A stretch of DNA of 64,000 bases. It comes from Candidatus Omnitrophota bacterium (GTDB lineage Bacteria; Omnitrophota; Omnitrophia; Omnitrophales; Aquincolibacteriaceae). Positions 17,024 through 47,395 of the stretch are shown piece after piece; the first letter of the stretch is position 1; each line of letters begins with the position of its first letter. The notes beneath the pieces are model-generated. The model was given only the letters and a program-made list of their open reading frames with translations, did no database searches and was not told where the DNA came from. The translations under genes and the position numbers were made by a program. The stretch spans positions 90,456 through 154,455 of the forward strand of contig DAOPYQ010000006.1 of the NCBI GenBank assembly GCA_035352955.1. The letters are read 5' to 3'.

Positions 17024-17072
17024 ACGGGCGTTGTTTTTTATTCCTCAAAGCTTGTCAGCCGATGAGGTGAGC

Positions 17073-20000
17073 ATGAAAGTGGACCCTTCGAAGCATTGGG
17101 TGGACGGTAAGTATTCCATCCGGGAGCTTGTCGATCTGGGGGAATTGCGTTCTCTTTTCCAGAGTTTTACGGATTCCATGGGTTTTACCATCGGCTTTTT
17201 AAGTATTCCCGACCTCGAGATTCTGATCGCTACCGGATGGCGCGATATTTGCACGAAATACCACCGCCAGTGCCCTCTTGCCATGACCCGGTGCCGCATG
17301 AGCAATGATCGCCTGATCCGCCATCTGAAACGTCCCGGCCAGATCGTGATCGAGGGCTGTGAGAATGGGCTGGTCGACTGTGCCACACCTATCATCATCA
17401 AAGGCAAGAAGATCGCCATCCTCGCGACCGGCCAGGTCCTCCTCAAACCGCCCGATATGAGCTATTTCAAGAGACAGGCCAAATTGTTCGGATGTAATGG
17501 AGCCGCCTACCTGCGTGCCGTAAAAGAAGTTCCCGTGATCTCCGAGAAAAAACTGAAACAGGCGACGCGATTTCTGGGTGAGTTGGCCCACATGATCATT
17601 CAGATGGGCCATGCCGGTCTTGCGGAGAAAGAGCGTGCCGAAGCCCTAGGGCAGGAGATTCGCCGGCGGGAGGGGACAGAGATCGTGCTGAAAGACACTC
17701 TGGATCAATTGGGAGCCCTCTACGACGGTATGACCGACGGTATCATTGTGGGCGATGTGAAGACCAAAAAGCTCCTTAAGGTTAATGCGAGCGCCTGTCG
17801 GATGTTCGGATATTCCGAAAAAGAAATCCTCACAAAAAAAGTTCGGGATATGCATCCTCAGCAACACCTGAAAAAGGTTTTTAGTTTCTTCCGTAGCTTG
17901 ACGCGAAAGGAGAAACTTGTTGCATTGGATGTTCCGTGCAAGAAAAGGGACGGCGCTGTTTTTTTTGCGGATGTTGCGGGAAATAAGACCCGTTTTGAAG
18001 GAAGGGATTGTCTCGTCGGATTCTTTCGGGATGCCACGGAAAGGAAAATGGCGGCAGAATCTCTCCGGATGAGCGCCAAGGATTGGCAATCTACATTTGA
18101 TGCTGTCACGGACGCTGTCTGGCTCCTGGGCCTGGACGGGCGAGTTCTCCGGACTAACAAGGCAGCTTCCCGGTTATTTGGGAAAAAATCCGGAGAGATC
18201 CTCGGACACCGTTGCTGTGAAATGGTTCACGGGACCTCCCAGCCCCCTAAAGAATGTCCCATGCTCAGGATGCGAAAGACGCTTCGTCGTGAGTCCTCGG
18301 AGATCCGTCTCGAGGACCGGTGGCTTTCCATAACGGTGGACCCCACTTTTGACAAGGCCGGTGTCTTGAACGGTGCCGTCCACATCGTGAGTGATATTAC
18401 GGACCGTAAACGGTTGGATCTGTCACTGCACGAAAGCGAAGAGCGGTTACGCATGGTCCTCGACAGCTCCCTCGACCTGATCTATCGGCGTAATTTGAAG
18501 ACCGGCTGCTACGATTATCTTAGCTCTGCCGTCAGGCGGCATACAGGCTATGCCGCGCATCAGTTGGTGGGAGCAAAGGCCGGACGTTCGATGTTTCGGC
18601 GCATTCATCCTGAAGATCTTCCGCGCGTGCGGAAGGCTTTGCTTGCCGCCCGGTTCGGTCGGGAAGCTCAAGGAATTTTGGAGTATCGGTTCCGTCATAG
18701 AAATGGCAGGTACCGGTGGTTTTCTGATCGCTTTACAGTTGTGAAGGACGAGACCGGGCGTCCGCTTCATTGGTTGGGCGTGTCCCGCGACGTTACGGAA
18801 CACAAGAAAATAGCCGGGGCTCTCGTTGAAAGTGAAAGGCGCTATCGTCTCCTGACCGAGAATTCGAGTGACGTGATATGGACCATGAATTTAGACGGAA
18901 AATTCACCTATGTCAGCCCGACGACCTACCAACTTCGCGGTTATACTTCCGAGGAAGTTATGCGCCAACCTCTGGACAAACAGGTCGCGCCGGGCTCTTT
19001 GCCTCTGGCAATAGCAACCCTGGATCAAGTGCTCAAGAAAGGCCGGAGGGGGATTCTTGTGCCGCGGAGGGTTGTTGATGTGGAGCAGCTTTGCAAGAAT
19101 GGTTCTACGGTCTGGACTGAAGTTTCAATTGAGCTTGTCCGGGATAAAGTGAACGGTGTTCTTTTTCTTCTGGGAGTGACGCGGAACATTACGGAGCGTA
19201 AGCGGACTCTTGAGGAGTTGGAAAAATACCGCGGGCATCTCGAAGAGATTGTGATGTCGCGGACCCGGGAGGTGAACGACGCCCGGAACTTTTTGGACAA
19301 GATCATTAACACCATGGGGAACCCTGTTTTTGTCAAGGACCGGAAACACCGCTGGGTTCTCCTGAACGATGCGTATTGCAAATTTATGGGGTATCGCAGG
19401 GAGCAGCTGATCGGTAAAAGTGACCGCGACTTTTTTTCGCCGGGAGAGGCCAAGGTTTTTTGGGCCAAGGACGAGATTGTTTTTCGAACCGGAAAGGCCA
19501 ATGTTAACGAAGAGAAATTCACCGACGCGAGAGGCTGTACTCACACGGTACTTACGAAGGAAGTGCTCTATAAGGAAAAATCCGGACAGAACTATATCGT
19601 TGGGATCATTACCGATATTACGGAGCGGGAACGAACGGAGCATCGGATCCGTGAAAATGAGGAGAAAATCCGGCGGATCACCAACGCGCTCCCCTCGGTC
19701 GTCTACACTTATCAGATGACGCCGGATGGTAAACAGCAGCTCACGTTTCTCAGCCCGCAGGTGAGAAAACTTTTCGGGATCTCTCAGCGTTCAGTCTTGA
19801 AAGATTTCTACATCCTTTGGAATCGGGTCGTCAAGGAGGACCGGAAGCCCCTTTATGCATCCATCCGGAAATCTTTCAAGGCACTAACTCCTTGGGAGTA
19901 TGACTTCCGCATCATTACACCGACGGGGATCCACAAATGGATTCATGGGGAGTCCGTTCCGGAGAGGCCTCTTCCCGATGGGCATGTCATCTGGCATGGC

Positions 20001-21995
20001 GCTCTGTCGGATATTACCGCGAGGAAGCGGATGGAGGGGGAGCTTGAAAAACACCGGAATCATCTTGAGGAGTTGGTCAAGGCGCGGACAAGTGCGCTGG
20101 AGCATGAGATCGGTGACCGCATCCACGCGGAAGAAAAACTCCGGGTGAGCGAAGCCCGGCTGCAACTTCAATTCCGGCGAATGCCGATCGGGTGTATCCT
20201 GTGGAATGCGGATTTCAGAGTTCTGATGTGGAATCCCGCAGCGGAGAAAATTTTTGGCTACTCCGCACATGAGGCTATTGGGAAACATCCATACGGGTGG
20301 ATCGTTTCCCAGGAGGCCTGGAAGCGTATCTCCCGGGACTGGAGCCATCTTCGTAAAGGGGAGATTACGGCGCATAGCGTGAATGAAAACCGTACAAAAA
20401 AAGGAGAAAAGATCCTTTGTAAGTGGACCAATACGCCACTTCGCGGGAGTGACGGAGAGGTGCTCGGCGTTCTTTCGATGGTGGAAGATGTTACCGCGCT
20501 TCACCTGGCCGAGGATCATCTCCGGGAAAGTGAACGCCGGTATCGGGCTCTTTTTGAGTCCGCGAAGGATGCGATTTTTCTGATGGAAGGAGATCGTTTT
20601 ATCGATTGCAATCCGACGACCCTCAAAATGTTCGGGTGCGACCGCAAAGAGATCCTTGGGACACGGCCTTACCAGTTTTCACCGGAACGTCAGCCGGATG
20701 GAGGCAGTTCGAAAGAAAAGGCTTTGGAGATGATCTCCGCCGCTTTTCAAGGGGTCCCGCAATTCTTTCAATGGCAGCACTGTCGTAGGGACGGGAGCTT
20801 ATTTGATGCCGAAGTGGGCTTGAATACGATGGAAATTTCCGGCAAAAAATATCTCCTGGCCATTGTTCGCGATATCACCGAACGCAAAAAGAGCGAAGAG
20901 GCTTTGAATGAGAATCGCCGGCAGCTGCGCCAGATCATCGATACGGTACCGCACATGATTTTTGCCAAGGATCGGGAGGGGCGGTTCCTTATCGTGAACC
21001 GGGCAGTCGGGTTGATGTATGGTAAGGATCCCCAGTCGTTGATCGGGAAGAGACGGCAGGACGTTCATCCGGTTTCGGCCGAAGCTCAGAAATTCCTGGA
21101 CGTTGACCGTGAAGTCTTGTCTTCGGGAAAACCGAGGTTGGTTGCCAATGAACCCTTTACTGACACAAAAGGAAGGCACCATATCCTACAAACGATCAAG
21201 ATTCCTTTTGCGATGGCGGGACTCAAGGAAAATGTGGTTCTCGGGGTTTCGGTGGATGTGACCGAGCAGAAGAAGATTGAGGAGTTTCGTAACGATATTA
21301 TCCGAACCGTTTCCCACGAACTCCGTACGCCCCTGTCGATCGAAAAGGGGGGGATCAGCCTTCTCCTCGACGGTTCGACAGGGCCGATCAATGAGGAGCA
21401 GAAAACAGTCCTGGAGTCGGTCATGAGGAACGTGGACCGTCTTGCCCGGATGATCGACAGTCTTTTGAATATTTCGAAGATCGAAGCCGGCAAAGTGGAG
21501 CTTAAGAAGAAGGTCGTGGATTTCCGGGATATTGTCCGGGAAGTAGCTTTTGAGTTTAAAATAAAGGCCGAAGAAAAAAATATTGCGATCGAACTGGATC
21601 TTTCCGAACAAAAAGTGGAGGCGTTGGCGGACGCGGACAAGATCGCCCAGGTCTTGAGCAATCTGATCGATAATGCCTTAAAATTTACGCGCCAGGGCAG
21701 TATTAAAATATCTCTCAGGAGATCGGACGGAGAGGTTGAGTGTAGTGTTCAAGATACCGGGGTCGGGATCGCTCCGGAAAATATGTCGAACCTATTCGAA
21801 AAGTTTCAGCAATTCGCGCATGCGGCGGGTCCCGGGGAGAAAGGGCTTGGCCTCGGACTTTCGATCGCGCGGGGGCTTGTGGATCTGCACGGCGGAAGGA
21901 TATGGGCGAAGAGCCGTCCGGGCGAGGGATTGCGGGTCACTTTTTCAATTCCGGTGGATGATGGCGGGGAGGAACCTGAACTTGAAAATCTGTAA
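17073..21995 (+). CDS. giant sensor histidine kinase: N-terminal PocR ligand-binding domain, ~9-10 tandem PAS/PAC domains, HisKA, HATPase_c
   Basis: Start at ATG 17073 (GAGGTGA RBS; the ORF-track start at 17031 is TTG). PocR-like Cys/GL-D-A-PI-GQV pattern at the N-terminus. Repeated PAS signatures (DITERK, W..RDITE..). HisKA box FRNDIIRTVSHELRTPLS. G1/G2 ATPase boxes. Confidence 0.8.
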   Translation: MKVDPSKHWVDGKYSIRELVDLGELRSLFQSFTDSMGFTIGFLSIPDLEILIATGWRDICTKYHRQCPLAMTRCRMSNDRLIRHLKRPGQIVIEGCENGLVDCATPIIIKGKKIAILATGQVLLKPPDMSYFKRQAKLFGCNGAAYLRAVKEVPVISEKKLKQATRFLGELAHMIIQMGHAGLAEKERAEALGQEIRRREGTEIVLKDTLDQLGALYDGMTDGIIVGDVKTKKLLKVNASACRMFGYSEKEILTKKVRDMHPQQHLKKVFSFFRSLTRKEKLVALDVPCKKRDGAVFFADVAGNKTRFEGRDCLVGFFRDATERKMAAESLRMSAKDWQSTFDAVTDAVWLLGLDGRVLRTNKAASRLFGKKSGEILGHRCCEMVHGTSQPPKECPMLRMRKTLRRESSEIRLEDRWLSITVDPTFDKAGVLNGAVHIVSDITDRKRLDLSLHESEERLRMVLDSSLDLIYRRNLKTGCYDYLSSAVRRHTGYAAHQLVGAKAGRSMFRRIHPEDLPRVRKALLAARFGREAQGILEYRFRHRNGRYRWFSDRFTVVKDETGRPLHWLGVSRDVTEHKKIAGALVESERRYRLLTENSSDVIWTMNLDGKFTYVSPTTYQLRGYTSEEVMRQPLDKQVAPGSLPLAIATLDQVLKKGRRGILVPRRVVDVEQLCKNGSTVWTEVSIELVRDKVNGVLFLLGVTRNITERKRTLEELEKYRGHLEEIVMSRTREVNDARNFLDKIINTMGNPVFVKDRKHRWVLLNDAYCKFMGYRREQLIGKSDRDFFSPGEAKVFWAKDEIVFRTGKANVNEEKFTDARGCTHTVLTKEVLYKEKSGQNYIVGIITDITERERTEHRIRENEEKIRRITNALPSVVYTYQMTPDGKQQLTFLSPQVRKLFGISQRSVLKDFYILWNRVVKEDRKPLYASIRKSFKALTPWEYDFRIITPTGIHKWIHGESVPERPLPDGHVIWHGALSDITARKRMEGELEKHRNHLEELVKARTSALEHEIGDRIHAEEKLRVSEARLQLQFRRMPIGCILWNADFRVLMWNPAAEKIFGYSAHEAIGKHPYGWIVSQEAWKRISRDWSHLRKGEITAHSVNENRTKKGEKILCKWTNTPLRGSDGEVLGVLSMVEDVTALHLAEDHLRESERRYRALFESAKDAIFLMEGDRFIDCNPTTLKMFGCDRKEILGTRPYQFSPERQPDGGSSKEKALEMISAAFQGVPQFFQWQHCRRDGSLFDAEVGLNTMEISGKKYLLAIVRDITERKKSEEALNENRRQLRQIIDTVPHMIFAKDREGRFLIVNRAVGLMYGKDPQSLIGKRRQDVHPVSAEAQKFLDVDREVLSSGKPRLVANEPFTDTKGRHHILQTIKIPFAMAGLKENVVLGVSVDVTEQKKIEEFRNDIIRTVSHELRTPLSIEKGGISLLLDGSTGPINEEQKTVLESVMRNVDRLARMIDSLLNISKIEAGKVELKKKVVDFRDIVREVAFEFKIKAEEKNIAIELDLSEQKVEALADADKIAQVLSNLIDNALKFTRQGSIKISLRRSDGEVECSVQDTGVGIAPENMSNLFEKFQQFAHAAGPGEKGLGLGLSIARGLVDLHGGRIWAKSRPGEGLRVTFSIPVDDGGEEPELENL

Positions 21996-22362
21996 AAAGA
22001 AAAAAATACTGTTTATTGAGGATGAACCGGACCAAGTGCTGATGGTTCGTTTGAGGCTTGAGAAAAGCGGTTATTACGTAATTACCGCCATGGACGGAGT
22101 GGCGGGTCTGAAGAAAGCGCTCCAAGAGAAGCCGGATCTCATTTTGCTGGACGTTATTATGCCCGGGATCGACGGGTTGGAAGTGTGCCGCCGTCTTCGC
22201 GCCGAGAGTACTATGGAAAAAGTGCCCGTGATTGTGACGACGGCGGCGGGGAGTGACGACATCGAGCACGCATGCGCAACGGCGGGAGCGGATGATTGTA
22301 TCCGTAAGCCCTACGAGGCATCCGGCCTTATCGACAAGGTTCGGCGGTTGATCGGGGAGTAG
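21958..22362 (+). CDS. CheY-like response regulator receiver (stand-alone)
   Basis: Start ATGATG at 21958/21961 overlaps the kinase stop (21995). KILFIEDE...D...LLDVIMPG..G...K receiver pattern. The ORF-track N-terminal extension is rejected. Confidence 0.8.
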   Translation: MMAGRNLNLKICKKKKILFIEDEPDQVLMVRLRLEKSGYYVITAMDGVAGLKKALQEKPDLILLDVIMPGIDGLEVCRRLRAESTMEKVPVIVTTAAGSDDIEHACATAGADDCIRKPYEASGLIDKVRRLIGE

Positions 22363-22474: not shown

Positions 22475-23227
22475 TTGACGAACGGATTTTTCGGGAAAGG
22501 GATTATTCTTATGAAATCAACGAATAGTAGACAGATTATCGATGCGCTGGCGAAGATCAGCGATGCGGTTACTTCGGACCTGTACCTGGAGGAGATCCTG
22601 AAGCTGATCGTGACCGTGACCGCCGAGACCATGCGCTCGAAAATATGTTCACTGATGCTGCTTGATAAATCCACGAACGAACTTGCCGTCAAGGCGACCC
22701 AGTCGGTCAGTGAGTTCTATAACAAGAAGCCCAACGCGAGGCTCGGAGAAGGGATCGCGGGGCGCGCGGCCCAGTCCGGAAAACCGATCACAGTGCTGGA
22801 TGTGCGGAAGGACAAGCGTTACCTCAATCAGGTGATCGCCAAGAAAGAGAATCTTTGTTCGCTTCTCAGCGTGCCGCTTGTTTTTAAAGGCGGGGTGATC
22901 GGGGTTTTGAATTGTTATACCGCCAAGTCTCATCGTTTCAGTCCGGGCGAGGTGCGCATTATCCGGTCGATCGCGAACCAGGCGGCGATCGTTATTGAGA
23001 ATTTCAGGTTGGTGGCTGAGTCGCAGGTGATCCAAGAAGAACTGGAATCCCGGAAGGCGATCGAGCGCGCCAAAGGCATCCTGATGAAAAGAGAGAATTT
23101 GAGCGAGCAGGGAGCCTATAAACTGATCCGGAAGTATAGTATGGACAAGCGCAAGAGTATGCGGGAAGTGTCGGAGGCGATCCTCCTGAACGCTGAAATG
23201 CAAAGATTCTCGTCCGGTAAAGAATAA
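22475..23227 (+). CDS. GAF domain + ANTAR domain RNA-binding antiterminator
   Basis: GAF core (residues ~15-170), then C-terminal ANTAR signature AIERAKGILMKRENLSEQGAYKLIRKYSMDKRKSMREVSEAIL. Alternative start ATG 22511. Confidence 0.8.
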   Translation: MTNGFFGKGIILMKSTNSRQIIDALAKISDAVTSDLYLEEILKLIVTVTAETMRSKICSLMLLDKSTNELAVKATQSVSEFYNKKPNARLGEGIAGRAAQSGKPITVLDVRKDKRYLNQVIAKKENLCSLLSVPLVFKGGVIGVLNCYTAKSHRFSPGEVRIIRSIANQAAIVIENFRLVAESQVIQEELESRKAIERAKGILMKRENLSEQGAYKLIRKYSMDKRKSMREVSEAILLNAEMQRFSSGKE

Positions 23228-23235
23228 GATCGGGA

Positions 23236-23263
23236 TTGAAGATCAGGGTACCTGTGCTATAAT
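23236..23263 (+). promoter_or_regulatory. sigma70-like promoter TTGAAG-16 nt-TATAAT for gdhA leader
   Basis: Read directly. Produces a ~220-nt leader before ATG 23485. Confidence 0.5.
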
Positions 23264-23345
23264 TTCGCCGCTGAACACAACGTGAGTGTTTGGCGGAAAG
23301 AAAGTGAAACGGTGTTCTGAGCAGAGCCCTCGTTTCTTTTCGATT

Positions 23346-23408
23346 CCGGAGTACGGGATAACGACATCCTTTTTGGCAGGAGCATTTGCCGAAAAGGATT
23401 TTTTTTTG
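23346..23408 (+). promoter_or_regulatory. gdhA leader attenuator: intrinsic terminator (12-bp stem ATCCTTTTTGGCA / TGCCGAAAAGGA plus 9 U) overlapped by ANTAR-type hairpin GGAU-AACGAC-AUCC
   Basis: Hexaloop AACGAC has A at position 1 and G at position 4 (ANTAR target consensus). Its 3' half is shared with the terminator 5' arm. Located downstream of the GAF-ANTAR gene. Confidence 0.55.
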
Positions 23409-23484
23409 GCAAAAACGTTCTGTCGCCGCGAACAAGGGACGGGGGGCTTTTGGATCCTCAAAACAGCAAAGAAGGGGTGCAACC

Positions 23485-24849
23485 ATGGTGAAAGCAGGAG
23501 AGAATTTGGTGGAAAAAGAGATCAACGCATTCATGAAAAAAGTGAGTGCCAGGAATTCCGGGGAAAAGGAATTCCTCCAGGCTGTCCGGGAGGTCGTGGA
23601 GTCCGTTACTCCTTTTATCGAAAAGAATCCCAAATACAAGAACGCGAAGATCCTCGAGAGAATGGTCGAGCCGGAGCGCGTGCTGATGTTCCGCGTTCCC
23701 TGGCTGGATGATAAGGGCGAAATTCAGGTCAATCGCGGGTTCCGTATCGAGATGAATAGCGCGATCGGTCCTTACAAGGGCGGTCTTCGTCTTCACCCGA
23801 GCGTGAACCTCGGCATTTTGAAGTTTTTGGCGTTCGAGCAGGTTTTCAAGAACAGTCTTACCACGCTGCCGATGGGCGGCGGGAAGGGCGGTTCGGATTT
23901 TGACCCCAAGGGGAAATCTGATAATGAAGTCATGAAGTTCTGCCAGAGTTTCATGACCGAATTGTCCCGTCATATCGGACCGGATACGGACGTTCCGGCC
24001 GGGGATATCGGCGTGGGCGGTCGCGAGATCGGGTTTATGTTCGGCCAGTACAAGAGACTGCGCAATGAGTTTACCGGCGTTTTGACGGGCAAGGCCCTGA
24101 ATTGGGGCGGCAGTCTGGTCCGTCCGGAAGCCACGGGGTACGGGTGCGTGTATTTCGTGCAGGAGATGCTGAAGACCCGGAAAATGACGTTTGCCGGGAA
24201 GGTTTGTGCGGTTTCCGGTTCCGGGAACGTTGCGCAATACACGGTCCAAAAATTGAACGAGCTTGGCGCAAAGGTCGTCACCTTGTCGGATTCCGAAGGT
24301 ACCATCGTCGACAAGAAGGGGATCGATGCGAAAAAGCTCAAGTTTGTGATGGAGCTCAAGAACGTCAGGCGCGGCCGTATCAAGGAATGCGTTGAGGCGT
24401 TCGGCTGTGAATACCTCCCGGGCCAGAAGCCCTGGAAGGTGAAGTGTGACGTTGCGTTCCCGAGCGCCACGCAAAACGAGATCAACGAAGCGGATGCGAA
24501 AGCCCTTGTAAAGAACGGCTGCATCGCGGTCGGGGAAGGCGCGAACATGCCGACCACGCCGGAAGGCATTGCGGTGTTCCAGAAGGCGAAGATCCTCTAT
24601 GCTCCCGGGAAAGCGGCGAATGCCGGCGGCGTGGCGACTTCGGGCCTGGAAATGAGCCAGAACAGCATGAGGCTCCGCTGGTCCCGCAAAGAGGTTGATG
24701 AGAAGCTGCATAGCATCATGATCTCGATCCACGAAAGCTGCGTGAAGTATGGCCAGGAAGACGGAGGGTACATCAACTACGTCAATGGTGCCAACATCGC
24801 GGGATTTGTGAAGGTCGCGGATGCGATGATCGACCAGGGGCTGGTTTAA
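23485..24849 (+). CDS. gdhA: NADP-specific glutamate dehydrogenase
   Basis: 454 aa from internal ATG. GDH motifs LPMGGGKGG and GVGGREIGFMFGQYKRL. Rossmann GSGNVAQY. Confidence 0.9.
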   Translation: MVKAGENLVEKEINAFMKKVSARNSGEKEFLQAVREVVESVTPFIEKNPKYKNAKILERMVEPERVLMFRVPWLDDKGEIQVNRGFRIEMNSAIGPYKGGLRLHPSVNLGILKFLAFEQVFKNSLTTLPMGGGKGGSDFDPKGKSDNEVMKFCQSFMTELSRHIGPDTDVPAGDIGVGGREIGFMFGQYKRLRNEFTGVLTGKALNWGGSLVRPEATGYGCVYFVQEMLKTRKMTFAGKVCAVSGSGNVAQYTVQKLNELGAKVVTLSDSEGTIVDKKGIDAKKLKFVMELKNVRRGRIKECVEAFGCEYLPGQKPWKVKCDVAFPSATQNEINEADAKALVKNGCIAVGEGANMPTTPEGIAVFQKAKILYAPGKAANAGGVATSGLEMSQNSMRLRWSRKEVDEKLHSIMISIHESCVKYGQEDGGYINYVNGANIAGFVKVADAMIDQGLV

Positions 24850-24865
24850 GCGTTAAACCCTGAAA

Positions 24866-24911
24866 GGGGTCAGATGCCATTTTAGGAAAAGGCGTCTGAC
24901 CCCTTTTATTT
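24866..24911 (+). terminator. rho-independent terminator after gdhA (GGGGTCAGA...TCTGACCCC + TTTTATTTT)
   Basis: 9-bp GC-rich stem, U-tract. A near-identical copy of this element occurs at 41802-41848. Confidence 0.7.
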
Positions 24912-24913
24912 TG

Positions 24914-24942
24914 TTGACAAATGATACCAATTCAGTATCATT
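24914..24942 (+). promoter_or_regulatory. promoter (TTGACA ... TATCAT) with embedded perfect 8-7-8 inverted repeat AATGATAC-N7-GTATCATT: candidate Rrf2 operator
   Basis: Palindrome 24920-24942 overlaps the -10 region. Rrf2 ATG at 24948, giving a near-leaderless transcript. Confidence 0.5.
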
Positions 24943-24947
24943 AAACC

Positions 24948-25367
24948 ATGAAACTCATCACAAGGAATACCGATTACGCAGTGCGCGCATTGTGCTACCT
25001 CGCGGGGCAGGGCTCAGCGGCCGTTTCCGTCACCGAGCTTGTCGCAAGACTTCGCATCCCTCGCCCGTTTTTAAGAAAGCTTCTCCAAACGCTCGGAGGC
25101 GAGGGGATTCTCCGCTCGACAAAAGGACAAGGCGGCGGATTTTCGCTAGCCAAGTCGCCGGAAAATATCCGTTTGACGGACCTGATCCGTATTTTTCAAG
25201 GCGGTATCCAGCTCAACGAATGTATTTTTAAAAGGAAAATTTGCCCCAACAGGGCCACCTGTGTCCTGAAGCGGGAGATCGACGGTATCGAGCAAAGCGC
25301 TTTGCAACGGCTCGAAAAGGTCAGCATTGCTTTGCTGATCAGGAAGGGGCGACACCATGATCAATAA
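24948..25367 (+). CDS. Rrf2-family transcriptional regulator (NsrR/IscR-like)
   Basis: 139 aa. N-terminal wHTH MKLITRNTDYAVRALCYLA, Cys cluster C..C.....C in the C-terminal half. Confidence 0.8.
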   Translation: MKLITRNTDYAVRALCYLAGQGSAAVSVTELVARLRIPRPFLRKLLQTLGGEGILRSTKGQGGGFSLAKSPENIRLTDLIRIFQGGIQLNECIFKRKICPNRATCVLKREIDGIEQSALQRLEKVSIALLIRKGRHHDQ

Positions 25368-27036
25368 GGAGGCGCGGTACAAAGGGCTTCCGCTGAGCCC
25401 TGGGGTGGCGTTTGCGAGGGTCTGCCTTTTTAATGAACGAAGGCACCAAAATCTTCCGGTGCGCGACGTGAGCGTCAAAGAAATTTCCAAAGAAAAAGAA
25501 CGTGTCCGGAAAGCCGTGTCGCTTGTCAAAGACCGGCTGGAGGAATTGATCGCGAGTGTCAAAGACAAAGTCGGACCCGCCGAGGCCGAGATCTTTGCGG
25601 CGCAAAAAATGATTCTGAAGGATCCGGCGCTTGAAAAGCTGATCGCGGAGCATATTGAGACCCGGAATTTTAACGCCGAAAAAGCGGTGATCAGCTCGCT
25701 CGATTTTTTTGAGTCGCAGCTCGCGAAGATGGACAACGAATACATCCGGGAGCGGGCCTCCGACATCGGGGAGGTGAAACGGAGGCTTCTGGATGTGCTC
25801 GCTAACCTGAACCCTTCCTTTCAGTGCGCGAGCGAATCTTTTTGCCAGAGGGGGAAGAACCGGATCGTGATCGCGGAAGAATTGACGCCGAGTTTGACGA
25901 TGGAGCTCAATACCGATTTTATTCGTGGGTTTGTGACCGAACGCGGCGGTGGCGCGTCCCATGCGGCGATCCTTGCTCGGGCGCTCAAGATCCCTGCTGT
26001 TAGCGGTATCCCGAATATCCATGATCGCATGTTTTGCGGGACCGATGTCCTGATTAATGGGGACACGGGGGAGGTGGTGCTGTGGCCGACCGAAAAGACT
26101 CTTTCCCAATATCCTGAACTGAAGTTGCCGCCGCCGGAGGTCCTCAAAGCGGAAAATCCGATCTCCGGACTCAAGGTCATGGCGAACCTTAATCGTGCCG
26201 CGAAAGTGCAGGAGGTCCTGGACCAGAAGGCGGAAGGGATCGGTCTTTATCGCACCGAGTTCGAGTTTTTTGCTGCCGGAAAGATCCTGAGCGAAGAAGA
26301 ACAGCTGGAACGTTACATAGCGGTTCTCAAAGCGATGCGGGGGAAGCCTGTTTATTTCAGGATGCTCGATATCGGAGGGGATAAGAACGCCGATTTTTTG
26401 AAATTGCCGACCGAGCGCAATCCGTATCTGGGGTTTCGTGGCAGCCGGTTTCTTCTGGGACACCGTAATCTTTTCAGGGCCCAGGCCCGTGCGCTGGCCA
26501 AAGCTTCGCAATACGGCCGCGTTTATGTGATGTATCCGATGGTGATCGATCTTGATCAGTTCCTGCAACTCAAGAAAGCCTTTTTGGAAGAGACGGCGGA
26601 CATTCCGTCGGGCGAGATCAAACATGGCATGATGTTCGAGGTTCCGTCGGCGTGCCTGGATGCCGAAGAGCTTTTCCGTCACGTCGATTTCGGCAGCATC
26701 GGAACGAACGATTTGATCCAGTATATGTTCGCGGTGGACCGTGATAATGAAGCGGTGGCCTACGATCATCACCCGGACCGCAAGGTGTTCTGGGCGCTTC
26801 TGCGTCATGTCGCTCACGCCGCCCGCAAACATCGCAAGCCCCTTTCGGTTTGCGGGGAACTTGCGGGGAATCCCGGGTACGCGCGCCGATTAGTGGGCGA
26901 GGGGATCCACACGGTGAGTGTGGCGGCAAGTATGATCACTGCGCTCCGTATCGCTCTCAAAAACAAGCCGGAACACCGAGAACCAAAATTGCCGCGAAAT
27001 GCGTTGCAAAACATTCGAAAGAAATCTAAAAGGTGA
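25357..27036 (+). CDS. PEP-utilizing enzyme of the PtsI/PtsP (enzyme I) family
   Basis: 559 aa. Phosphohistidine domain GGGASHAAILARALKIPAVSG. PEP-binding TIM barrel with GSIGTNDLIQY. Overlaps the Rrf2 gene by 11 nt. No HPr gene nearby. Confidence 0.7.
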   Translation: MINKEARYKGLPLSPGVAFARVCLFNERRHQNLPVRDVSVKEISKEKERVRKAVSLVKDRLEELIASVKDKVGPAEAEIFAAQKMILKDPALEKLIAEHIETRNFNAEKAVISSLDFFESQLAKMDNEYIRERASDIGEVKRRLLDVLANLNPSFQCASESFCQRGKNRIVIAEELTPSLTMELNTDFIRGFVTERGGGASHAAILARALKIPAVSGIPNIHDRMFCGTDVLINGDTGEVVLWPTEKTLSQYPELKLPPPEVLKAENPISGLKVMANLNRAAKVQEVLDQKAEGIGLYRTEFEFFAAGKILSEEEQLERYIAVLKAMRGKPVYFRMLDIGGDKNADFLKLPTERNPYLGFRGSRFLLGHRNLFRAQARALAKASQYGRVYVMYPMVIDLDQFLQLKKAFLEETADIPSGEIKHGMMFEVPSACLDAEELFRHVDFGSIGTNDLIQYMFAVDRDNEAVAYDHHPDRKVFWALLRHVAHAARKHRKPLSVCGELAGNPGYARRLVGEGIHTVSVAASMITALRIALKNKPEHREPKLPRNALQNIRKKSKR

Positions 27037-27251
27037 CGGAGAGCGTGCGTGAACTGGGGTTGTCCTTATCAGCTGGGAGATCGGTGCCAAAAATTGAAGA
27101 AACTTTGTCAGCCTGTTCAAAGAGGATGTGTGCTTTACGGAGAGGTCCAATGTCACCCTTCTCCGGGGGTAGCGTTGGAAAATGGTCACGTGATGAGTCA
27201 TTTTGAAAACAAACTGTCAAAGGCGGAAAAATCTAAAAGGGGGAAACGAAA

Positions 27252-28928
27252 ATGAGCATGTTCTGCTTTCAGTGCGAACAAACATCGAAGGGAAAAGGTT
27301 GTGACGTGAAGGGGGTTTGCGGAAAAACGCCGGAGGTGTCTTCGCTTCAGGACCTTTTGATCCATGCCGCAAAAGGGATCGCAATCTACGCACACGCCGC
27401 CCGCGAGATCGGGGTGAAAAATGCGGAAACAGACCGGTTTGTGATTGAGGCGCTTTTTGCCACCGTGACGAATGTGGATTTTGATCCCGTCCGGTTGCAG
27501 GAAACGCTCCTTCGCGGGTATCAGGTGAAAGAAAAGATCAAAGGTCTTTTTCTTGCCGCGTACAAGAAAAAGGTCGGCAGTGATTTTGACGGAGAGTTTC
27601 CGGCGGCCGCGTATTGGAAACCTGCGGATACTTTGGCGGGCCTTGAAGAGCAGGGAAGCCGGGTCGGGATCCTTTCCGATAAGACCCTGAATGAAGATAT
27701 CCGCAGCCTTCGCGAGCTTCTTTTGTACGGGCTCAAGGGAATGGCTGCTTACGCGGATCACGCTCTTGTGTTGGGGCGCGAGGATGAGGAAGTTACCGCG
27801 TTCTTCCATAAAGGACTTCGCGCGATGACTGATAAAAGCCTGACGGTGGATGCGCTTGTCGGGCTCAACATGCAGTTCGGGAGGGTGAATCTCAAGTGCC
27901 TTGAGATTCTGGATAAGGCTCACACGGATCATTTTGGGCATCCGGTGCCGACAGGGGTGTCGCTCGGCGTAAAAAAAGGGTCGGCGATTCTTGTGTCAGG
28001 CCATGACCTTCTGGATCTCGAGCAGTTGTTGCAGCAAACCGAGGGGAAGGGCGTATCGATCTATACTCACGGGGAAATGCTTCCGGCACACGGGTATCCG
28101 AAACTCAAACAATACAAACACCTCGTTGCGAATTATGGCGGTGCGTGGCAGGATCAGGCCAAGGAGTTCGATCTTTTTCCGGGCGCGATCCTGATGACCA
28201 CGAATTGTATCCAGGAGCCGCGGGCGAGTTACAAGAGCCGTATTTTTACGACGGGGCTTGTAGCCTGGCCGGGAGTGGAGCATATTTCTACGGTGAATGG
28301 AAAGAAGGATTTCAGTAAGGTAATCGCGGCGGCCCTCAAGGCGGGAGGTTTCTCTGCGGATGTTCCGGCGAAGAATATCGTGGTCGGGTTTGGCCATAAC
28401 GCGGTGCTTGGCGTCGCAGACAAGGTGATCGGCGCTGTTAAAACCGGACAGATCAAACATTTCTTTTTGATCGGCGGATGTGACGGCGCAAAACCCGGTC
28501 GTAACTATTACACCGAGTTTGCGGAGCAAACGCCGAAGGATACGGTGATCCTGACGCTGGCGTGCGGGAAGTACCGCTTTAACAAACTGGATTTCGGCGA
28601 TATCGGAGGCATTCCCAGGCTCCTCGATATGGGGCAGTGCAATGACGCCTATTCAGCGATCCAGGTGGCGGTGGCGCTCGCCAAGGTTTTCAACTGCGGG
28701 GTCAATGAACTCCCGCTTTCGATGGTCCTCTCCTGGTACGAACAGAAGGCGGTTTGCATTCTGCTGACGCTTCTGGCGCTCGGGATCCAGAACATCCGGA
28801 TCGGACCTTCCTTGCCGGCGTTCGTGAGCGGAAACGTTCTGAAGGTCCTGGTGGAAAAATTCAGCATCAAGCCCGTGACGACGGCTCAGGAAGACCTAAA
28901 AGCGATCCTTGGTCCGGCAAAAGCCTGA
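27252..28928 (+). CDS. hcp: hybrid cluster protein (hydroxylamine reductase / NO-stress protein)
   Basis: 558 aa. N-terminal Cys motif CFQCEQTSKGKGCDVKGVCGK. RBS AGGGGGAAACGAAAATG. Confidence 0.9.
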   Translation: MSMFCFQCEQTSKGKGCDVKGVCGKTPEVSSLQDLLIHAAKGIAIYAHAAREIGVKNAETDRFVIEALFATVTNVDFDPVRLQETLLRGYQVKEKIKGLFLAAYKKKVGSDFDGEFPAAAYWKPADTLAGLEEQGSRVGILSDKTLNEDIRSLRELLLYGLKGMAAYADHALVLGREDEEVTAFFHKGLRAMTDKSLTVDALVGLNMQFGRVNLKCLEILDKAHTDHFGHPVPTGVSLGVKKGSAILVSGHDLLDLEQLLQQTEGKGVSIYTHGEMLPAHGYPKLKQYKHLVANYGGAWQDQAKEFDLFPGAILMTTNCIQEPRASYKSRIFTTGLVAWPGVEHISTVNGKKDFSKVIAAALKAGGFSADVPAKNIVVGFGHNAVLGVADKVIGAVKTGQIKHFFLIGGCDGAKPGRNYYTEFAEQTPKDTVILTLACGKYRFNKLDFGDIGGIPRLLDMGQCNDAYSAIQVAVALAKVFNCGVNELPLSMVLSWYEQKAVCILLTLLALGIQNIRIGPSLPAFVSGNVLKVLVEKFSIKPVTTAQEDLKAILGPAKA

Positions 28929-46153: not shown

Positions 46154-47395
46154 ATGGAGCGATCGATGGAGGCTAAGACGTTCAACGCAGAAGAGGTCCG
46201 AAAAGATTTCCCGCTTTTAAACGAGCAGGTGTACGGCAAGCCGCTGACTTATCTCGATAACGCGGCGACGACCCAAAAGCCACAGAGCGTGATCGATACG
46301 ATCACCCAGTTCTATTCTAAGGAGAACGCGAACATCCACCGCGGCATCTTCTGCTTAAGCGAACAGGCCACCAAGCGTTACAAAAGCGCGAGGCATAAGG
46401 TCCAGGAGTTCCTCCATGCGGCATCGGACAAGGAGATCCTTTTTGTTCGCGGAACGACGGAGGCGATCAACCTTGTGGTTCAGTGCTACGGCAGGGCATT
46501 CCTCAAGAAAGACGATGAGGTCCTGATCACGCATATGGAACATCATTCCAACATTGTGCCTTGGCAGATGCTTCGGGATGAAAGGGGTATTAAGCTCAAG
46601 GTAGCGCCGATCAACGACGACGGAGAGCTCCTTCTTGACGAATTTAAAAAACTTTTGACCGACAAGGTCAAGTTTGTTTCCGTGGTTCATGTGTCCAACG
46701 CTCTCGGGACCGTGAATCCCGTCAAAGAGATCGTCCGGCTTGCGCATGAAAAGGGTGCGGTGGTCCTGCTCGACGGCGCCCAGGCAGTGGCCCATACGCC
46801 AGTGGATGTCCAGGACCTTGGCTGTGATTTTTATGCGTTTTCCGGCCATAAACTTCTCGGGCCGACGGGGATCGGGGTGCTTTACGGCAGGAAAGAATTA
46901 CTCGAAAAAATGCCCCCTTACCAGGGCGGCGGCGACATGATCCGGACCGTGACATTCGAAAAGACGACCTACAACGAGCTGCCTTACAAGTTTGAGGCCG
47001 GGACGCCGCATATTGCGGGCGTGATCGGCCTGGGGACCGCGATCGATTATATCCGTTCGGTCGGGATCGAGAGGATCGAGAGTTATGAGCAGGAACTTTT
47101 GAAATATGGAACGGAAAAACTGCTTCAGATCCCGGGTCTCCGGTTGATCGGGACCGCCAGGAAGAAATCCGCGATCCTCTCATTCGTGCTTGGTGAGGCG
47201 CACGCGCACGATATCGGAACGATCCTTGACCGGCAGGGGATCGCGATCCGGGCGGGCCATCATTGTGCCATGCCGGTCATGCAGCGTTTCAATGTTCCGG
47301 CAACGACGCGCGCGTCCTTCGCTTTTTATAATACCCGCCAGGAGATCGATCGCCTGGTCGCTGCGCTCCATGAGGTTACGGAGGTTTTTAAATGA
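46154..47395 (+). CDS. sufS: cysteine desulfurase SufS
   Basis: Start ATG 46154 (GAGGGTG RBS). PLP Lys region SGHKLLGPTGIGVLY. Active-site Cys loop RAGHHCA. Class V aminotransferase fold. Confidence 0.85.
   Translation: MERSMEAKTFNAEEVRKDFPLLNEQVYGKPLTYLDNAATTQKPQSVIDTITQFYSKENANIHRGIFCLSEQATKRYKSARHKVQEFLHAASDKEILFVRGTTEAINLVVQCYGRAFLKKDDEVLITHMEHHSNIVPWQMLRDERGIKLKVAPINDDGELLLDEFKKLLTDKVKFVSVVHVSNALGTVNPVKEIVRLAHEKGAVVLLDGAQAVAHTPVDVQDLGCDFYAFSGHKLLGPTGIGVLYGRKELLEKMPPYQGGGDMIRTVTFEKTTYNELPYKFEAGTPHIAGVIGLGTAIDYIRSVGIERIESYEQELLKYGTEKLLQIPGLRLIGTARKKSAILSFVLGEAHAHDIGTILDRQGIAIRAGHHCAMPVMQRFNVPATTRASFAFYNTRQEIDRLVAALHEVTEVFK

Follow-up and report, generated by a model that had tools for sequence, protein, structure and literature searches.

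The glutamate dehydrogenase gene (gdhA) of an uncultured Omnitrophota bacterium lies directly downstream of a gene for a GAF-ANTAR protein, and the leader between the two genes, with its relation to that protein, is the subject of this analysis. The DNA examined, called the window throughout, is a stretch of 64,000 nucleotides (nt) of contig DAOPYQ010000006.1. The spacer between the two genes is 257 nt long and contains a promoter followed by a series of RNA hairpins, so that the locus reads as follows (energies of single hairpins are for the isolated elements):

22511-23227, + strand: GAF-ANTAR regulator gene, 238 amino acids (aa), in the open reading frame 22475-23227; Pfam GAF_2 and ANTAR above thresholds.
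23236-23263, + strand: sigma-70-type promoter, -35 TTGAAG (23236-23241) and extended -10 TGcTATAAT (23255-23263); 10 of 12 consensus positions plus the TG; spacing 16.
23268-23296, + strand: H1, the proposed first ANTAR hairpin (P1), CCGCUGAACAC[AACGUGA]GUGUUUGGCGG; 5'-terminal, closing C:G pair, 7-nt loop with A1 and G4 (G23282); -15.1 kcal/mol.
23295-23341, + strand: H2, a hairpin, long and irregular, that separates H1 from P2; its tetraloop tip is at 23314-23327, and its 3' side is rich in U (23333-23340); minimum free energy -15.4 kcal/mol; may be a first, weaker terminator (T1).
23306-23317, + strand: P2', a speculative candidate hairpin GAA[ACGGUG]UUC; hexaloop with A1 and G4, 9 nt after H1, overlapping the 5' arm of H2/T1.
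23343-23359, + strand: H3, AUUCC[GGAGUAC]GGGAU, which includes CCG-GAGUA-CGG; its 3' arm is the 5' arm of P2; -5.9 kcal/mol.
23356-23369, + strand: P2, the putative antiterminator hairpin GGAU[AACGAC]AUCC; hexaloop with A1 and G4 (G23363); its 3' arm AUCC doubles as the first 4 nt of the terminator; -1.7 kcal/mol.
23366-23407, + strand: T2, an intrinsic terminator detected by a terminator scan; 14-bp stem and 6-nt loop (23366-23399), then U8 (23400-23407); -18.3 kcal/mol.
23485-24849, + strand: gdhA, NADP-specific glutamate dehydrogenase, 454 aa, the putative regulated gene; Pfam ELFV_dehydrog; NCBIfam equivalog.

An original prediction, made by a model from the letters of the window, had placed a GAF-ANTAR gene directly upstream of gdhA, and the profile matches bear this out: the regulator, for which ATG 22511 is the most plausible start, matches both Pfam domains, and the gdhA product, which carries the ELFV_dehydrog domains, scores 775.3 bits with the NCBIfam equivalog NF006929 (NADP-specific glutamate dehydrogenase), against a cut-off of 536. 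The predicted TTGAAG-16-TATAAT promoter is also present, with the TG of an extended -10 element, and an equivalent promoter (TTGAAA/TTGGCA...TGnTATAAT) is found in orthologous intergenic regions.

Folded without constraint (ViennaRNA), the leader from 23267 to 23410 forms four hairpins, H1, H2, H3 and T2, at -56.8 kcal/mol. T2 is a strong terminator as predicted, with a folding z-score of -3.5 relative to shuffled sequences and nine consecutive T at 23399-23407; its proposed geometry of a 12-bp stem with an 8-nt loop is corrected by two more loop-proximal pairs. A target of ANTAR proteins consists of two hairpins of at least 3 bp, with hexaloops that have A at position 1 and G at position 4 (PMC3369931) and a preferred closing C:G pair (PMC3369931; PMC7496416). 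P2, which the original prediction had recognized together with its overlap with the terminator, matches the published definition of the second hairpin in its stem, in A1 and G4 and in its position over the 5' arm of an intrinsic terminator, with which it has AUCC (23366-23369) in common. Enforcing P2 in the folding of the leader costs +9.8 kcal/mol and eliminates the four stem pairs of T2 next to the U-tract, so the unbound leader is predicted to terminate by default; with P2 at -1.7 and T2 at -18.3 kcal/mol and this cost of forcing, a protein would therefore be needed to keep P2 closed. Such a hairpin, unable to form without outside stabilization and set against termination as the default, follows the logic of known ANTAR switches (PMC3369931, PMC8934654). 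The 3' arm of H3 pairs through GGAU, which is the 5' arm of P2; H3 and P2 are therefore alternatives and not a tandem pair, and H3 is probably an anti-antiterminator that competes with P2.

Relatives of the locus were collected by a protein-guided scan of one genome per species, which gave 27 loci, nearly all of them in metagenome-assembled genomes (MAGs) of Omnitrophota, and by a profile-guided scan of metagenomes, which gave 80 more, for a total of 107 loci, mostly Omnitrophota. The order regulator, leader, gdhA is kept in 18 of the 27 genome loci and in 11 of the 80 metagenome loci (10 with the leader motif), approximately 29 in total, with gdhA 88-94% identical among syntenic loci. Genes for gdhA, GOGAT-like, gltD-like or glnA products occur within the fetched flanks of the regulator at approximately 74 of the 107 loci, and 56 non-redundant related leaders contain the P2 motif with a U-run behind it. 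Two types of leader were aligned and analysed separately: 23 gdhA leaders (type A, alignment A4) and 24 leaders of type B (alignment A3); a joint MAFFT alignment misplaced the compact leader of locus L021, and spacing varies too widely among the leader types for a single covariance model.

Conservation supports the hairpins as more than chance, judged across relatives rather than from the single sequence. In type A, H1 is 89% paired with 6 of 11 pairs changed on both sides, T2 is 99.3% paired with three compensatory pairs, H3 is 83.5% paired with one pair changed on both sides, and P2 is 100% paired and invariant except for a change of U:G to U:A; slid-partner controls for H1 and T2 are approximately 40-50% paired, and the tip helix of H2 covaries at 5 of 7 pairs. 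Type B again supports H1, the H2 tip, H3 and T2, and P2 is again 100% paired and invariant. Over the 47 leaders of both types, the H1 loop C[A A N G U K A]G keeps its closing C:G pair and G4 without exception (47/47 each) and A1 in 42, the corresponding counts in type A alone being 23/23, 23/23 and 20/23; the P2 loop U[A A N G A C]G, closed by U:G or U:A, keeps G4 in 47/47, A2 in 46/47 and A1 in 43/47. The H3 loop has such a consensus only in type B, as C[A R N G U U A]G lying 3-5 nt before P2 (closing C:G 22/24, G4 23/24, A1 22/24), and is not conserved in type A, where roughly half of the 23 leaders are AACAC-like without the G. Covariation of the P2 stem appears across lineages: a hand-picked and hand-aligned set of 19 representatives of all layouts has compensatory changes at 4 of 4 pairs and an invariant G4, with 94.7% pairing versus 42-63% in slid controls, and includes variants such as AAGG[AAUGUU]CCUU and GAAC[AAAGAC]GUUC.

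A context table and direct reading of the loci (numbered with an L) distinguish five layouts that hold the protein family and an ANTAR-type leader together:

Layout A (the clade of the window): regulator, leader, gdhA; 28 loci with the leader motif, plus L047, which is set under layout E.
Layout B: regulator-1, leader, second GAF-ANTAR paralogue (approximately 60% identical), glutamate-synthase-domain gene (PF01645); in a variant, gdhA, leader, paralogue, GOGAT-like gene.
Layout C (L021, L098): regulator, compact P1, 2-nt linker, P2, terminator, GOGAT-like gene, glnA.
Layout D (L062, L066, L068, L070): regulator and gdhA divergent; GCAC[AAYGGC]GUGC, 6-14 nt, then GAC[AAAGRY]GUC over a terminator with a U-run.
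Layout E (L047): regulator, GAC[AAAGAG]GUU, 11-nt linker, GAAC[AAAGAC]GUUC over a terminator, gdhA; canonical.

In layout D, the regulators are 62-64% identical to that of the window, and the leader of gdhA is a canonical ANTAR dual hexaloop. The coupling of the GAF-ANTAR family to ANTAR-type leaders and to enzymes of glutamate and glutamine metabolism is thus independent of any one gene order. Since the pairing is kept in five layouts, the original prediction was very probably right to regard the adjacent GAF-ANTAR protein as the antiterminator of the gdhA leader terminator.

The regulator consists of a GAF domain (approximately residues 26-163; Pfam GAF_2, E 2.7e-23, 83 bits), a long connecting helix and an ANTAR three-helix domain (PF03861, residues 174-225; E 2.3e-21, 75.7 bits versus a gathering cut-off of 27.3). 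A protein 100% identical to it is on record from a Candidatus Omnitrophota MAG. An AlphaFold2 model of the monomer (predicted local distance difference test score 86.6) has one continuous helix, residues 145-195, running into the ANTAR helices, which might serve as the helical (coiled-coil) connector through which ANTAR proteins dimerize. The ANTAR segment can be aligned with those of EutV (6wsh), Rv1626 (1s8n) and NasR (4akk) and retains ERAKGILM (motif ERAKGxLM), the aromatic position A202-Y203, and S210-M211 within S-M-D-K-R (motif SM(D/N)KR); A202-Y203 and S210-M211 are invariant or nearly invariant in an alignment of 24 relatives. The aromatic Tyr164 of EutV stacks on G4 of the loop, and a methionine is needed for binding (PMC8934654). 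Y203 of the regulator is presumably the counterpart of Tyr164, and the residues with which EutV contacts RNA appear to be kept.

The GAF domain may point to nitrogen status as the signal. Among solved structures, the PtsP (EI-Ntr) GAF domains 3trc and 3ci6 match its model best (TM score 0.85) and are also its nearest solved relatives by sequence; GAF domains of Aquifex NifA-like regulators are among the next-best matches in the PDB, the top NCBIfam matches are PtsP and NifA, and identity to the PtsP and NifA GAF domains is 22-28%. The GAF domain of NifA binds 2-oxoglutarate, to which EI-Ntr's GAF domain responds too in Escherichia coli. Because glutamine binding is documented for the EI-Ntr GAF domain (PMC4848567), a nitrogen-status metabolite such as glutamine or 2-oxoglutarate is a reasonable guess for the ligand of the regulator; the nitrogen signal through the GAF domain that the original prediction had proposed is accordingly plausible.

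Given the observed anatomy of the leader, its conservation and covariation, its energetics and its genomic coupling to the protein, we consider it probable that the gdhA leader is an ANTAR-type transcription attenuator run by the GAF-ANTAR protein encoded immediately upstream, and we infer from the sequence of this protein that it binds RNA. In the proposed mechanism, transcription would begin at approximately 23270 from the extended -10 promoter; the unbound leader RNA would adopt H1, H2, H3 and T2, so that RNA polymerase would stop before gdhA, with H3 occupying the 5' arm of P2 and tilting the unbound RNA towards termination. With its GAF domain in the active ligand state, a dimer of the protein would bind two loops of the nascent RNA, that of H1, C[AACGUGA]G with G23282, and the hexaloop of P2 with G23363, and would hold the otherwise unstable P2 closed. 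P2 would then sequester AUCC, the partner of the GGAU (23396-23399) directly ahead of the U-tract, leaving T2 incomplete and gdhA transcribed. The ligand may switch gdhA on or off, a sign that is not readable from the sequence.

Several points weigh against this mechanism. The loop of H1 has the A1, G4 and closing C:G of a published first hairpin but is 7 nt long, not 6. In eut leaders, the linker between the hairpins is 5-12 nt and a 20-nt extension abolishes the action of EutV, whereas H1 and P2 are 59 nt apart, so the short-linker rule does not hold for them in the window, and the model needs the H2 hairpin to bring their loops together. P2 is closed by U:G or U:A and not by the C:G pair preferred in SELEX; it is invariant within the gdhA clade and hence offers no stem covariation there, and the 19 representatives across which its stem covaries were chosen and aligned by hand. 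T2 also stands downstream of the regulator gene, and part of its conservation could reflect that role. With respect to the signal, identity of the GAF domain to that of PtsP is only 22-25%, a likeness that does not fix the ligand.

The choice of partner for P2 bears directly on these points. The original prediction had called the leader textbook, yet no second hexaloop hairpin is conserved at a distance of 10-20 nt upstream of P2, an absence that it had itself counted as grounds for rejection. Its candidate for the first hairpin, CCG-GAGUA-CGG (CCGGAGUACGG, 23346-23356), does exist, with a 5-nt loop (7 nt in an alternative register), but it overlaps P2 and lacks conservation in its loop; the conserved hairpin that is the likelier ANTAR-like partner is H1, with a 7-nt loop, 59 nt upstream. 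H1 rather than H3 seems the better candidate for the partner of P2, on comparison of the related leaders, because H1 and P2 are the two invariant elements in the gdhA clade, and because locus L011, from which H2 and H3 are missing, still has H1, joined to P2 by a linker of 20 nt, and T2 before an intact gdhA, while H2 is truncated in locus L006. These natural deletions mean that H2 is dispensable. H1 is further favoured because 47 of the 59 nt between H1 and P2 fold as H2, the base of which abuts H1, leaving a through-space gap to P2 of approximately 14 nt. First and second hairpins are separated by 20 nt in L011 and by 2-14 nt in other layouts, and true hexaloop first hairpins are present in relatives with other layouts (L021, the divergent gdhA leaders and L047). 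The short-linker rule would be satisfied in the window only if the speculative P2', 9 nt after H1, were counted.

A canonical adjacent dual hairpin, with CCG-GAGUA-CGG as the first hairpin and GGAU[AACGAC]AUCC as the second, is unlikely. H3 of the window does sit at the position of a genuine type-B first hairpin, C[ARNGUUA]G 3-5 nt before P2, and in the 7-nt register its loop GGAGUAC keeps G4-U5 and a closing C:G pair. However, CCG-GAGUA-CGG shares G23356 with P2, and its stable form (23343-23359) takes the whole 5' arm of P2, so that the two cannot coexist; it has no hexaloop with A1; loops of the AACAC type without G occur in approximately half of the 23 gdhA leaders; and L011 lacks this hairpin and still has H1, P2 and T2. 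H3 is best seen as a decayed first hairpin that now competes with P2.

The same attenuator might have another operator, either an ANTAR protein encoded elsewhere in the genome or the conserved upstream kinase and receiver acting through the GAF-ANTAR protein in place of a ligand. In 29 related loci, a single-domain receiver gene is located upstream of the GAF-ANTAR gene and in most of them adjoins it directly, and the window contains a gene for a 1654-aa histidine kinase with PocR and many PAS domains (region 17031-22362) followed by a stand-alone receiver (approximately 22000-22362); moreover, only 64 kb of the genome are in view. Another operator is nonetheless very unlikely, as the window holds no other ANTAR gene, distant loci keep the pairing of regulator and leader without a receiver, and the GAF fold is that of a domain with a PtsP-like pocket. 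Within the preferred mechanism, the receiver and kinase are possibly a second input into the regulator, adding to or replacing small-molecule sensing.

There is little to recommend a protein-independent riboswitch or cis-acting RNA, in which H1, H2 and H3 would form a metabolite aptamer controlling T2 and the GAF-ANTAR gene would be a mere neighbour. The leader is a large, conserved structure of several helices that has invariant bases in its loops, a GNRA-like tip and folding z-scores of -2.5 to -3.5, as might be expected of an aptamer; the invariant bases, however, are exactly the ANTAR loop signature, and the element always adjoins a GAF-ANTAR gene, in five layouts. The dispensability of H2 and H3 (L011, L021 and the divergent gdhA leaders) is hard to square with an aptamer, and H2 in particular is ruled out as part of one by the natural deletions that keep H1, P2 and T2. 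Rfam scans of the window region and six related loci yielded nothing relevant, only sub-threshold chance matches, although the lack of an Rfam match is weak evidence. Least credible of all is that T2 is a plain terminator of the GAF-ANTAR gene, with gdhA expressed on its own without regulation and the P2 overlap incidental: no other terminator lies between the regulator stop codon (23227) and T2, so read-through transcripts of the regulator would end there, but the conserved promoter lies between that stop codon and T2 with nothing promoter-like found between T2 and gdhA, the unit of first hairpin, P2 and terminator recurs in true 5' leaders without a preceding regulator gene (divergent and gdhA-first layouts), and the P2 loop is invariant across 47 leaders.

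The ANTAR-type attenuator thus preferred for the window shares its main features with characterized systems. EutV of Enterococcus faecalis, which acts on the eutP, eutG, eutS and eutA leaders, carries the same RNA-contact motifs in its ANTAR output domain, and its targets are likewise pairs of small hairpins with A1/G4 loops, the second over an intrinsic terminator (PMC3369931, PMC8934654). EutV differs in that its sensor is a phosphorylated receiver (REC-ANTAR) and not a GAF domain, its targets serve ethanolamine use rather than nitrogen assimilation, and the linkers of eut leaders are 5-12 nt, compared with the 59 nt, including another hairpin, that separate P2 of the window from a first hairpin with a 7-nt loop. 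NasR, which acts on the nasF leader of Klebsiella oxytoca, resembles the regulator more closely as a one-component protein with a ligand-binding domain fused to ANTAR, whose antitermination at a terminator in the leader governs an operon for nitrogen assimilation, with the same loop consensus and closing C:G pair (PMC7496416); its NIT domain binds nitrate or nitrite, in contrast to the GAF domain here, and its target genes are others. GnfK/GnfR of Geobacter sulfurreducens also tie ANTAR antitermination to nitrogen metabolism, GnfR being a response regulator, and in Geobacter it is GnfM, acting at the promoter, that controls gdhA and not GnfR antitermination. PtsP (EI-Ntr) and NifA, whose GAF domains are the closest relatives in sequence and fold, have as outputs a phosphoenolpyruvate phosphotransferase and a sigma-54 activator, respectively, where the window protein has an RNA-binding domain.

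Upstream ANTAR RNA sites have been predicted for glutamate synthase, glnA, P-II and amt genes, and gdhA is absent from the target tables of that study (Ramesh et al. 2012). GAF-ANTAR is among the commonest ANTAR architectures, in mycobacteria the most frequent of all, and is listed in reviews and primary papers up to 2025 without a characterized example. Neither a gdhA ANTAR target nor a GAF-ANTAR protein with a defined RNA target or signal was found in the searchable literature, which agrees with the original prediction that gdhA is a new member of the ANTAR regulon. The mechanism is thus already known from AmiR, NasR, EutV and GnfR, and what is very probably new for ANTAR antitermination is the type of sensor (GAF) and the target gene (gdhA), accompanied by RNA details that are non-canonical: the heptaloop first hairpin, the long structured linker, the competing H3 and possibly tandem units. 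The locus would add gdhA to the ANTAR nitrogen regulon and open nitrogen control in an uncultured phylum to a first look; naturally occurring targets whose first loop has 7 nt and whose linker is long and structured bear on how far the EutV spacing rule extends over the family, and the locus with its approximately 100 relatives makes up a testable set of protein, RNA site, regulated enzyme and a few candidate ligands.

Additional hairpins raise the prospect of tandem units. In type B, the H2 tip GGCGUUC-loop-GAACGCC is terminator-like, being followed directly by U5-6, and its 5' arm is overlapped by GAAC[AAAGUGGC]GUUC, 10-12 nt downstream of H1; T2 is followed by a third hairpin resembling a terminator, over which lies GAAC[AAUGGC]GUUC, at a position equivalent to 23409-23455 of the window. 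P2' of the window likewise overlaps H2, the 3' side of which is UUUCUUUU. In the 23 type-A leaders P2' is 80% paired with both-side changes at 3 of 3 pairs, a signal confounded by the membership of the same bases in the H2 stem, and the type-B counterpart is 93% paired without covariation. That P2' is the antiterminator of a first terminator, T1, is a suggestive lead and not a claim.

It is conceivable, though doubtful, that the GAF-ANTAR family is the main regulator of nitrogen status in Omnitrophota, a one-component system in which a PtsP-like GAF domain senses glutamine or 2-oxoglutarate and the output is exerted solely on nascent RNA, through multi-unit leaders and a cascade. As many as five ANTAR-type hairpins would then share a leader with two or three terminators in tandem, in units of H1 plus P2' over T1, H3 plus P2 over T2 and GAAC[AAUGGC]GUUC over the third terminator; in many genomes the first GAF-ANTAR protein would antiterminate into a paralogue, approximately 60% identical, co-transcribed with a GOGAT-like gene; and the leader of the window would be a trimmed version with a three-hairpin binding site.

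Many related genomes contain two GAF-ANTAR paralogues in tandem, approximately 75% and 60% identical to the window protein (L019, 4001-7156; L039, L040, L042-L046, L050, L059, L061, L064). An ANTAR-type leader lies between the paralogues and the second directly precedes a glutamate-synthase-domain gene, an arrangement that looks like an antitermination cascade. In L021 (6464-6480) and L098 (5964), a second P2-like sequence, GGAC[AAUGAA]GUCC, is located between the GOGAT-like gene and glnA with no obvious U-run after it, and may be coincidental or an internal ANTAR site. An extra GC-rich hairpin (e.g. CCCGUUCGACGGG) is inserted in the T2 loop of L009 (2690-2740) and L012 (4860-4910), the T2 stem being kept. 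In some distant loci, the GAF-ANTAR gene adjoins a frame that, read by eye, starts like a glutamine-dependent NAD+ synthetase in L024 (4680 onward) and L025 (2870 onward), and L019 has a Pfam NAD_synthase gene (476-1198) in the same cluster as its GAF-ANTAR gene; both are tied to glutamine use.

Elsewhere in the window, tblastn detected no further GAF-ANTAR, GOGAT-like or glnA gene. The sole regular-expression match to P2 outside the leader, at 46426, has neither a U-run after it nor a promoter-like -10 element upstream and is taken as chance; therefore, no regulon is definable from the window. An extra hairpin (approximately CGUUCUGUC...GACGGGGGGC, 23409-23455) follows T2 and is itself followed by UUUU. 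At the 3' end of gdhA (24861-24908) there is a strong, near-perfect palindromic terminator (AAAGGGGUCAGAUGCC...GGCGUCUGACCCCUUU, then UAUUUU), at which sub-threshold Rfam matches to microRNA families were rejected as chance. A homologue of PtsI/Enzyme I without a GAF domain is encoded two genes downstream of gdhA (25357-27036), with synteny in 13 related loci, as though EI-Ntr had its sensor and phosphotransferase divided between two genes, the regulator with its PtsP-like GAF domain and this Enzyme I homologue. Between gdhA and the Enzyme I homologue, a near-consensus promoter, TTGACA-16-TATCAT (24914-24941), precedes a gene for an Rrf2-family regulator (24948-25367), and the hybrid-cluster protein gene hcp (27252-28928) is found further downstream; the arrangement of Rrf2 gene and hcp (24914-28928) resembles NsrR-type control of nitrosative stress, with the Rrf2 gene syntenic in 20 related loci and hcp in 6.

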